This document shows, piece by piece, positions 3,708 through 5,078 of a stretch of DNA of 5,078 nt. The stretch lies in the IMG/VR virus record IMGVR_UViG_2671180275_000003; one strand, written 5' to 3'. The stretch's first letter is position 1; each line of letters begins with the position of its first letter. The notes below the pieces were generated by a model. The model saw only the letters and a program-made list of their open reading frames with translations. It had not been told where the DNA came from and searched no databases. The translations under genes were made by a program, and so were the position numbers. This stretch comes from a virus (taxonomy: Duplodnaviria > Heunggongvirae > Uroviricota > Caudoviricetes).

Positions 3708-3902
3708 TTACAGTGATTCGTCTCTTGTCAGCCTAAAAATCACTTCAGCCATGACTTCGCTAATTACATCGATCCCCTGATCGGTAAGGGCTTCTTTCCA
3801 GGCCTTGCTTGCACGTGTTGGATCCATCCTGCCTGATTGCTGTTGTATGATGATGAAGCGTAAATCGCTGTATAAGTCTTTTGTTTGAGTGGAGTCAGTC
3901 AT
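3708..3902 (-). CDS. Hypothetical small protein (64 aa)
   Basis: ATG at 3902 with SD GAAGGTG 5-6 nt upstream; second gene of the leftward operon. Confidence 0.5.
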   Translation of the reverse strand: MTDSTQTKDLYSDLRFIIIQQQSGRMDPTRASKAWKEALTDQGIDVISEVMAEVIFRLTRDESL

Positions 3903-3953
3903 GTCAACACCTTCAAATCCCGATGCTCTTAATGATCCCGGTTTGTTTTGATG

Positions 3954-4478
3954 TCACTGGTTGCCTTCGCTGTATTGGTGTTGCTCCAGTTTTGACTTTC
4001 TTCCTGTGTAAACCCGCTTTCCATTGATGGTCTGGCAGTCTTCTTTGTTTGCCGGGGAAAACTTTCTTTTCTGTCGGTCGTATGTCCAGTAGCTTTTCCA
4101 GTTGTGCCATTCTGGCGGCTCGCATTCTGGTAGTTCGTCAGCCAGCTTGTCCCACTCTCTGGCGTTAAACCACCACACGCCATCCGAATTTTCATCTTCA
4201 GGGTTTGAACGGGTCTTGTGTCCAGGCATCTGATTTCGCTGAAGCGCCACGCGCAATGCAGCTTTTGTCAACCCGATATAGGCTGCCCCTTTTTCAAGTG
4301 AGCAAAGTCCGGCTACCGGGCCATCCAGTCGCAAGGTTGCCCCTTTTTTGTAGGTGCGTTTTTTCTTTTCCTCTTGGTGTTCATCGTCGTTTGCCGCGCC
4401 AACGGATTCGGTGATGCTGTCGTTTTCCTGAAGGGCTTGTGTGTCAGATAACTCTTTATCGGCAATTGACTTCCGCAT
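3954..4478 (-). CDS. Cox/Apl-like HTH DNA-binding protein (candidate excisionase/early-promoter regulator), 174 aa as drawn
   Basis: First gene of the operon facing the repressor. Central segment GAAYIGLTKAALRVALQRNQMPG...DGVWWFNAREWDKL has the HTH-then-aromatic-wing pattern of P2 Cox / 186 Apl. ATG at 4478 with SD AGAGGA 6 nt upstream. Acidic ~48-aa N-terminal and ~55-aa C-terminal extensions are atypical; an internal TTG (4334..4332) with AAGGGG upstream is an alternative start. Confidence 0.6.
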   Translation of the reverse strand: MRKSIADKELSDTQALQENDSITESVGAANDDEHQEEKKKRTYKKGATLRLDGPVAGLCSLEKGAAYIGLTKAALRVALQRNQMPGHKTRSNPEDENSDGVWWFNAREWDKLADELPECEPPEWHNWKSYWTYDRQKRKFSPANKEDCQTINGKRVYTGRKSKLEQHQYSEGNQ

Positions 4479-4538
4479 TTGCTATCCTCTTGCGTTGGTG
4501 CGCTTGTCGCGCATCATGAAGGTTTGTTTAGGTTTATA

Positions 4539-4562
4539 AAAGATACTCGTGCGAGTATCTTT
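4539..4562. promoter_or_regulatory. Candidate operator: perfect 11-bp inverted repeat AAAGATACTCG-tg-CGAGTATCTTT
   Basis: Perfect palindrome read directly from the sequence, centred in the 104-bp gap between the divergent Cox-like and repressor genes. A related half-site AATACTC lies at 4574..4580. Confidence 0.5.
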
Positions 4563-4582
4563 CGCGAGAGGTTAATACTCAA
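4554..4582 (-). promoter_or_regulatory. Candidate early (lytic) promoter: -35 TTGAGT (4582..4577), 17-bp spacer, -10 GATACT (4559..4554)
   Basis: Hexamers found by eye on the - strand; the -10 falls inside the right arm of the palindrome, the usual geometry for a repressed promoter. Not experimentally anchored. Confidence 0.3.
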
Positions 4583-4924
4583 ATGGTTATCTTGTCAATA
4601 GACTATGCAAAAAAGCTACGTCAAATACGCAAGGCTGAAGGGCTAACGCAAAAGGAATTTGCGGATATTACGGGGTTGTCTTTAGCTGCCATAAGGAACT
4701 ATGAATCAGGGCAAAAAAGCGCCAGAGCCAAAATTGTTGAGATGGTTCTCCAAGTTGATCGGTTTGAAAAATACATGATGTGGCTAATAAAAGATAAGAC
4801 AATGCCTGCTGCCGGTCAGATAGCCCCGGCTCTCTCTCTTGATGGCTCCATTCAGTCGGAGGGCGATCAGGTTTCAATCGGCATTACCCAAAAATCACCC
4901 CGATCTCGTCGCAATGCTGGCTAA
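4583..4924 (+). CDS. Phage immunity repressor candidate, HTH-XRE family (P2 C-type by size and context), 113 aa
   Basis: N-terminal HTH LTQKEFADITGLSLAAIRNYESGQK; C-terminal KYMMWL...GQIAPAL resembles what I recall of P2 C; sits directly upstream of the integrase on the same strand; AGAGG 12 nt upstream of the ATG. Confidence 0.75.
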   Translation: MVILSIDYAKKLRQIRKAEGLTQKEFADITGLSLAAIRNYESGQKSARAKIVEMVLQVDRFEKYMMWLIKDKTMPAAGQIAPALSLDGSIQSEGDQVSIGITQKSPRSRRNAG

Positions 4925-4993
4925 CGCTGTACATCGAGCGGGTTTCATCCCGTAGAGAGTGTACGGCTGATTCATCCGTTGGAGGGGCTAATC

Positions 4994-5078
4994 ATGTCGA
5001 TTAAGCAACTCAAAGACGGGCGTTATAAGGTTGATGTAAGACCGCAAGGGACGGAAGGAAAGCGGATCCGTAAGATTT
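4994..5078 (+). CDS. int: Tyrosine integrase, N-terminal 28 codons only (P2-type); continues beyond the window
   Basis: MSIKQLKDGRYKVDVRPQGTEGKRIRKI closely parallels the P2 Int N-terminus as I recall it (MAIKKLDDGRYEVDIRPTGRNGKRIRRKF). Strong SD GGAGG 8 nt upstream; no terminator between repressor and int. Confidence 0.7.
   Translation, partial: MSIKQLKDGRYKVDVRPQGTEGKRIRKI

Follow-up and report, generated by a model that had tools for sequence, protein, structure and literature searches.

The question raised by this locus is which regulator, or which other function, is served by a long palindrome that lies between two divergent phage genes. The DNA analyzed here (hereafter the window) is the whole stretch of 5,078 nucleotides (nt) from a virus of the class Caudoviricetes, IMG/VR record IMGVR_UViG_2671180275_000003. 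A first-pass annotation, made from the letters alone, had described a compact lysis-lysogeny switch in the 104-base-pair (bp) gap at 4479-4582, between a Cox-like gene and a repressor gene, and these coordinates were reproduced: the list of open reading frames (ORFs) places the boundaries of the divergent ORFs at 4478 and 4583. Comparison with related prophages indicates that the palindrome in this gap is very probably the main binding site of the immunity repressor, a member of the P2 C family. The elements on which the argument turns are as follows.

3954-4478, minus strand: Cox-like gene, 174 amino acids (aa), first gene of the leftward early operon (ORF; Pfam and phrog matches)
4539-4562, no strand assigned: predicted main operator, a palindrome with 11-bp arms, AAAGATACTCG-TG-CGAGTATCTTT, centred at about +11 from the predicted leftward transcript start
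4583-4924, plus strand: immunity repressor gene of the P2 C family, 113 aa (PDB, Pfam and phrog matches)
4994-5078, plus strand: start of the integrase gene, 3' of the repressor gene and running beyond the window (as annotated in STEC2018-607, whose prophage is 99.8% identical)

The window is the early region and immunity switch of a P2-family (P88-like) prophage of Escherichia coli. P88-like P2-family E. coli phages matched it at 83% identity in a nucleotide comparison, and a 99.8% match was a prophage adjoining dmsA in E. coli STEC2018-607, whose annotated genes include a P2-family capsid, gpM, gpO, portal, replication endonuclease and lysis genes. The gene order is that of a P2-type switch, with C (4583-4924) and then int (from 4994) on the plus strand and the Cox-like gene (3954-4478) on the minus strand. 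The first-pass reading of a P2-type lysis-lysogeny switch is borne out by these features: within a P2-family prophage, a P2 C homologue precedes int and stands divergent to a Cox-family-like gene. Judged by its matches, the 113-aa protein is a P2 C homologue and a small single-domain repressor of the C family. It matched PDB entries 2L49/2XCJ, named 'C protein', with an E value of 1.6e-13 over residues 9-89, as well as the Pfam helix-turn-helix (HTH) family HTH_3 and phrog_147 (5e-29). By tblastn it shares 35% identity with P2 C and 48% with WPhi C.

The palindrome itself was defined by an inverted-repeat search, which returned two arms of 11 nt each, at 4539-4549 and 4552-4562, that are 100% complementary and separated by 2 nt. 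It is the sole perfect inverted repeat with arms of at least 8 nt in the window, and also the longest. When the window was shuffled 300 times with its dinucleotides preserved, 3 of the shuffles produced arms of at least 11 nt; of 5000 gap shuffles, none did. The earlier description of a perfect 24-bp palindrome holds for the arms but not for the central TG, which is not self-complementary, so that 22 of the 24 positions are symmetric. A palindrome that arose by chance and has no function is hardly credible: beyond the shuffles of the gap, a palindrome occupies the same position in every related type, and a peak of dyad symmetry at that position recurs across the wider repressor family, as described below. 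At the centre (4550-4551), the window and the IMG/VR contig L091 have TG, while SCU-106 and contig L092 have CA between identical arms; CA is the reverse complement of TG, as though the centre of the palindrome had been flipped. Because these near-identical relatives have CA there, the comparison suggests that the centre can vary freely.

Eight related prophages were aligned over their switch regions (alignment A1). The cox-proximal half of the gap is conserved, and from about position 4530 each immunity type has its own palindrome in the same alignment column. The half-sites in this alignment are GATACTCG, GATAACC, GATAA(T/C)CG, CTTCACC and A(A/G)TGTCG, and half-site and repressor recognition helix vary together across the types, which are listed here with palindrome and helix.

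Window type: AAAGATACTCG-TG-CGAGTATCTTT, recognition helix LAAIRN
P88-like type: AAAGATAACC-AAAA-GGTTATCTTT, recognition helix LATIRN
B771 type: AAAGATAATCG-TA-CGGTTATCTTT, recognition helix LATVRN
DETEC-S792, G6/7 and EC361 type: CTTCACC-CTGT-GGTGAAG, recognition helix VGTIGN
N51 type: AATGTCG-AAATTA-CGACACT, recognition helix VNTQRY

By this comparison the palindrome appears to mark an immunity type distinct from those of its relatives, in agreement with the different immunity specificity that had been proposed for it. Across cox-C-int, the DNA of the P88-like phages (Xuanwuvirus; for example Escherichia phage Entero_P88 and vB_EcoM-569R5) is 83% identical to the window. Their repressor is 92% identical, and they share the 104-bp gap, the position of the palindrome and its outer bases AAAGATA. 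They differ in the inner half-site (GATAACC, as against GATACTCG in the window), in the length of the centre (4 bp, as against 2 bp) and at residue 36 of the repressor (T36, as against A36). A36 aligns with T33 of P2 C, a residue placed for DNA contact and needed for binding (Massad et al., PMC2995052). It accompanies the operator inner bases CTCG where the P88-like type has ACC, and the T-to-A change at the equivalent of P2 T33 is a candidate for a one-residue specificity switch. Codon 36 (4688-4690) specifies Ala in the window and Thr in the P88-like, B771, DETEC, N51, WPhi and P2 repressors.

The strongest single result came from the comparison of prophages that are nearly the same outside the switch. 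The segment in which they differ is defined as follows.

4530-4822, no strand assigned: exchangeable immunity cassette of 293 bp, containing both operator sites and repressor codons 1-80

Over 3950-4529 and 4823-5070 the DETEC-S792 prophage matches the window at 100% identity, and within 4530-4822 the two differ at 113 positions. The G6/7 prophage likewise has 100% identical flanks, from about 3990 rightward. This pattern is that of a 293-bp cassette swapped between otherwise identical phages, as read from the aligned sequences. The right-hand junction of the cassette lies at a conserved repressor motif, AAGQIAPALSLDG. The window and the DETEC-S792 prophage have an identical Cox-like gene despite their unrelated palindromes, and because this gene is unchanged across the swap, the palindrome can be assigned to the repressor: on this comparison it travels with the repressor and not with the Cox-like gene. 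In line with the first-pass annotation, the palindrome is the best candidate for the operator of the repressor, since it is type-specific, stands at the same position in each type and is exchanged together with the repressor. Binding of the palindrome by the Cox-like protein, whether alone or in common with C in the manner of lambda CI and Cro, is very improbable. Such a role would suit a palindrome between two regulator genes, one of which encodes a Cox-like protein predicted to bind DNA, but in DETEC-S792 the 100%-identical Cox-like gene stands beside the unrelated CTTCACC-CTGT-GGTGAAG; moreover, the known targets of Cox/Apl proteins are direct repeats in helical phase (PMC7498355), and repeats of this kind adjoin the palindrome at 4520-4539.

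A second copy of the repressor site was found on the repressor side of the palindrome.

4571-4594, no strand assigned: predicted second, weaker operator site, which holds AATACTC, lies in the spacer between the -35 and -10 of the predicted leftward early promoter Pe, and overlaps the repressor start codon

The heptamer AATACTC had been noted before as a third half-site. It is present at 4574-4580, but it forms the left part of this degenerate full site and is not a lone half-site. The centre of the second site lies 32 bp, or three helical turns, from the centre of the palindrome. In the window it matches the palindrome at 13 of 24 positions, the offset of +32 being the best of 34 tested (p = 0.10), and the site would be convincing through its relatives only, not alone. 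In every related type the best second copy stands at +32/+33: the P88-like type has a 16/24 match at +33 (p < 0.003) and EC361 a 14/20 match (p < 0.003), and the copies in DETEC and SCU-106 reach p = 0.023 and p = 0.017, respectively. The copy of the right half-site over the first codons of the repressor varies with the palindrome, reading GGTTATCTT, GGTGAAC or CGACACT. No further operator copies comparable to the distal sites of 186 were found in a 41-kb locus covering part of the prophage, where half-site counts were at the level of chance.

Promoters were searched for by our own weight-matrix scan of both strands in ten switch regions, with shuffle controls. The scan pointed to the following leftward elements.

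4593-4598, minus strand: predicted Pe -35, TTGACA, inside repressor codons 4-6; the plus-strand TGTCAA is invariant in alignment A1 though the neighbouring codons differ
4569-4574, minus strand: predicted Pe -10, TAACCT, with an 18-bp spacer from the -35
4560-4564 (about 4562), minus strand: predicted start of the leftward early transcript, from the position of the -10

This candidate scored 11.0, a value reached by 1.2% of shuffles, and TTGACA-18-TAnnnT is present in all six immunity types, with TAACCT, TAATCT, TATCCT and TAAAAT as the -10 hexamers. TGTCAA is also the annotated Pe -35 of P2, where it overlaps C codons 1-2, and in WPhi it abuts the C start codon. The rule by which the start was placed from the -10 also recovers the end of the annotated Pe feature of WPhi, and the transcription start of WPhi Pe has been mapped (PMC1904263). 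Because the Pe start is predicted at about 4562, the palindrome, centred at +11.5, would occupy about +1 to +24, while the centre of the weak site would fall at -20.5, in the spacer. As far as the predicted elements go, this is the placement of a P2-type switch, in which the 5' end of C holds the Pe -35 and two sites, 2-3 helical turns apart, bracket the -10.

We consider it likely that repressor dimers bound to the palindrome and to the weaker site bracket the Pe -10 and thereby silence the Cox-like operon. One dimer of the 113-aa C-family repressor would bind the 24-bp palindrome at 4539-4562, and a second would bind the weaker site at 4571-4594, three helical turns away, probably cooperatively. 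Pe would have its -35 within the first repressor codons, its -10 between both sites and its start at about 4562, and the bound dimers on either side of the -10 would block initiation or early elongation, so that the Cox-like early operon would be off. The specificity would reside in the cassette of about 290 bp, in which the operators and the DNA-binding and dimerisation part of the repressor are exchanged together between prophages that are otherwise identical. Autoregulation at a high repressor level is plausible because the weak site covers the ribosome-binding site and the initial codons of the repressor gene; repressor autoregulation at high level has been reported for P2 (PMC3448106).

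Several observations weigh against this proposal. The second site is weak by itself in the window, and 24 bp is long for a single HTH dimer. The predicted -10, TAACCT, agrees with the consensus at 3 of 6 positions, and a consensus promoter and terminator scan of 3900-5078 gave none at its thresholds. The rightward, lysogenic promoter of the repressor gene, Pc, was not found: the best candidate in the gap scored 8.1, within the range of chance (in shuffled sequence the mean was 6.2 and the 95th percentile 9.9), and the weight-matrix scan gave no rightward candidate conserved across the immunity types. The rightward pair TTGCGT-16-CATCAT of the first-pass annotation is present but scored 4.8, below the shuffle mean best of 6.2, and its -10 is not conserved, reading CCTTGT, CCTTTT and CCTTAT in relatives (A1); that promoter is not supported. 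A convergent layout of the two promoters, with Pc beside cox, would be expected by homology with P2 and WPhi. Two further points of the same kind, a competing leftward promoter and a hairpin, belong to alternative explanations, which are treated in turn.

In the first of these, the leftward promoter is TTGAGT (4582..4577)-17-GATACT (4559..4554), with its -10 inside the palindrome as originally suggested, and the repressor would act by occluding this -10. The hexamers are present with the ideal spacing of 17 bp, and with a score of 8.8 they form the second-best leftward candidate after that of 11.0. They are a variant-specific alternative, limited to the window and SCU-106 types. A usable -10 is lacking at this place in the P88-like type, despite its 92% identical repressor (score 4.4), and likewise in the CTTCACC and TGTCG types, while TTGACA-18-TAnnnT is found in all types and corresponds to the annotated Pe of both P2 and WPhi. 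On this distribution we regard the alternative promoter as unlikely.

The second alternative is that the palindrome acts mainly as RNA, namely as a 5'-terminal hairpin of the early transcript with the function of a stabiliser or attenuator. The minus strand would form a stable hairpin (-12.9 kcal/mol, z = -6.4) followed by the U-rich UUUUAUAAA, the predicted Pe transcript would carry this hairpin directly at its 5' terminus, and complementary arms that are kept while their sequence varies across immunity types would fit an RNA stem equally well. An RNA stem, however, needs no partial second copy with conserved half-sites at a distance of 32 bp, and the half-site varies with the recognition helix and moves with the repressor as a cassette. 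In WPhi and P2, repressor sites that form no hairpin stand at the homologous positions. Some two thirds of the loci in the family survey below have no dyad at that position, and Rfam gave no match in the window. We regard a mainly RNA-based function as unlikely too; an additional role as RNA could accompany the binding of repressor.

The proposed repression of Pe from two C-family sites can be compared with the known switches of the P2 type (P2, WPhi, P2 Hy dis). WPhi (Peduovirus), with its 48% identical repressor, is similar in that C is followed by int and diverges from cox, in that the Pe -35 TTGACA lies at the 5' end of C, and in that two sites are about three helical turns apart, 34 bp in WPhi and 32 bp in the window. 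The WPhi operators were mapped experimentally, O1 in the spacer and O2 downstream of the start (PMC1904263); the site centres are at -20.5 and +13.5 in WPhi by our own count and at -20.5 and +11.5 in the window. The two differ in that the WPhi sites are described as 10-bp direct repeats, TATTGGTGAC, whereas the downstream site of the window is a palindrome with 11-bp arms and its spacer site is degenerate. They also differ in the half-site sequence, in the length of the Cox protein (174 aa for the Cox-like protein and 90 aa for WPhi Cox) and in the -35, which lies 16 bp deeper into the C gene in the window. With P2 the window shares the repressor fold family, the int-C-cox order and a Pe -35 (TGTCAA) over the first C codons. 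P2 differs in that a pair of direct repeats of 8 bp, with a distance of 22 bp between them, flanks its -10, and its repressor, 35% identical, has 99 aa, as against 113 aa with a longer tail. On these comparisons the switch is of the P2/WPhi type, to judge by the genes present and their order, the family of the repressor and the predicted positions of Pe and of the two sites, with an operator design that deviates.

The 186 type of switch, with a two-domain CI of about 190 aa and cII, is a different one, the repressor here having 113 aa and belonging to the C family; no cII was identified among the annotated early genes, and the inverted-repeat operator is the sole feature in common with 186. 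Neither is the switch of the lambdoid CI/Cro type, with back-to-back promoters and operators common to both regulators, as there is no Cro-type gene and the palindrome segregates with C. Dyad-symmetric sites bound by small HTH dimers are known for C.Esp1396I, P22 c2 and the 434 repressor, which are cited as neighbours of P2 C in structure (PMC2995052), and C.Esp1396I binds two adjacent palindromic sites cooperatively, at 15 bp centre to centre; these proteins belong to other families and have another spacing, and the homology covered here is at the level of weak HTH_3 matches.

The palindromic design contrasts with what has been described for the coliphages. P2 C is cited as a rare case of a symmetric HTH dimer that reads direct repeats. 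According to Massad et al. 2010 (PMC2995052), each of the seven immunity classes known from coliphages seems to rely on direct repeats without palindromic symmetry, and the binding of a symmetric dimer to direct repeats was still called puzzling in a nuclear magnetic resonance (NMR) paper of 2015 (PMC4752584). The remark in the first-pass annotation that the classic P2 C protein binds direct repeats agrees with both papers. In the window, by comparison, the predicted main site is a perfect inverted repeat, and the direct-repeat relation between the main and second sites amounts to 13/24 positions. We found no description of the P88-type switch or of palindromic C-family operators in the literature searched; Karlsson et al. 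2006, which reportedly describes P2-like immunity classes as arising by recombination within the switch, lay outside that search, and prior notice is possible.

The survey was extended by 80 further C-family repressor loci from genomes of other species. Among 87 non-redundant upstream regions, at a shuffle p of 0.05 or less, 31 contained an inverted repeat and 34 a direct repeat, and in 64 of the 87 family loci an exact TTGACA stands close to the start of C, on the other strand. The centres of the strong palindromes have a median position of +11 from the predicted Pe start. Along the Pe strand, strong dyad symmetry peaks at +8 to +15, in 27% of 83 loci, with a smaller peak at +0 to +3 (8%), and each of the remaining 4-bp bins from -68 to +127 holds dyad symmetry in 0-2% of the loci. 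A significant second copy was found in 13 of the 29 strong-palindrome loci, 31-38 bp away and always on the C side.

A locus of Arsenophonus nasoniae (L016, about 1460-1525) has the WPhi half-site GGTGAC as a perfect palindrome, AGTCACC-TTAT-GGTGACT, and a further ATGGTGACTAA at the repressor start codon; its recognition helix, LGTLKN, resembles LGTVKN of WPhi. The repressor ORF of this locus is 204 aa, twice the usual length. WPhi O1 itself, GTCACC-AATA-GGTTAC, is symmetric at 5/6 positions, and inspection of the P2 half-sites showed no dyad partner. On the grounds of the 27% peak, the Arsenophonus palindrome and the near-symmetry of WPhi O1, we put forward, tentatively and with the balance slightly on the side of doubt, that the C repressors of P2-like phages in general recognise, as symmetric dimers, pairs of dyad-type sites spaced by about three helical turns, and that the 'direct repeats' of P2 and WPhi are the conserved halves of such sites. 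If this is true, the palindrome at +11 would be a natural symmetric case for the structure of a repressor-DNA complex and would resolve the direct-repeat puzzle. The use of perfect palindromes by close P2 C homologues at the same promoter position bears on the open question of recognition, and the swap of the immunity cassette between otherwise identical prophages provides a clean natural example. Outside the biology of P2-like phages, this is an ordinary repressor-operator pair.

The remaining signals of the gap are the two translation starts and a pair of repeats next to the palindrome.

4485-4491, minus strand: Shine-Dalgarno sequence AAGAGGA of the Cox-like gene (sequence reading; invariant block in A1)
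4520-4539, no strand assigned: a direct repeat with two copies of 10 bp, AGGTTTGTTT / AGGTTTATAA, on the immediate left of the palindrome
4566-4571, plus strand: Shine-Dalgarno sequence GAGAGG of the repressor gene (sequence reading)

The direct repeat is exact in EC361 (GGTTTGTTTT twice, p = 0.00) and in N51 (GGTTTGTTT twice, p = 0.02), the copies being 10 bp apart in both. Cox/Apl-type proteins bind direct repeats one helical turn apart (PMC7498355), and by this analogy the repeats at 4520-4539 are candidate binding sites of the Cox-like protein. A GC-rich block, GGTGCGCTTGTCGCGC (with GCGC-TTGTC-GCGC inside), at 4497-4512 in the leader of the early transcript is near-invariant across all immunity types. 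A leaderless repressor mRNA starting from a -10 at 4573-4578 was considered and dropped, in view of the GAGAGG Shine-Dalgarno sequence and the lack of a supporting -35.

The Cox-like protein scored 25.3 bits with Pfam Phage_Cox over residues 58-129, below the cut-off of 27.5, and matched phrog_23196 ('transcriptional regulator') at 2.7e-120. A precomputed PF10743 match exists for 61 of 65 of its homologues, some of which are named 'Cox family DNA-binding protein' by NCBI. By BLASTP the similarity to P2 Cox was weak (E value 0.055) and none was detectable to WPhi Cox, and PDB searches with the sequence and with a profile gave no match. The protein is about twice the length of P2 Cox. An AlphaFold2 model from 26 sequences had a predicted local distance difference test (pLDDT) value of 43.5 and was unusable for the fold; in this low-confidence model, an acidic N-terminal extension of about 45-50 residues has no regular structure predicted. 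The C-terminal part is rich in Trp, with an invariant PEWHxW..YW.

The exact operator is rare. Among 351 E. coli genomes with this prophage group, the switch region is at least 95% identical in 13, and some of these, such as G6/7, match in the cox-proximal half only and have a different palindrome, so that the exact operator belongs to a small minority of the 351; it was also found in 2 IMG/VR contigs. On the plus strand, co-transcription of the repressor gene and int would follow from the P2 model. On the other side, the early genes beyond the Cox-like gene encode a hypothetical protein, DUF4761 and DUF4754. A ParE family toxin-like ORF (NCBI label in the 99.8%-identical prophage) lies at 1700-1912 on the minus strand, with no partner antitoxin evident in the annotation of that prophage, and its neighbours are the genes for a DNA adenine methylase (724-1704) on one side and for a 3'-5' exonuclease (1938-2528) on the other. 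In the STEC2018-607 prophage, beyond the limits of the window, a frameshift is annotated in the gene for the large terminase subunit (L002, 5342-7074), and because of this the prophage copy in that strain may be defective.

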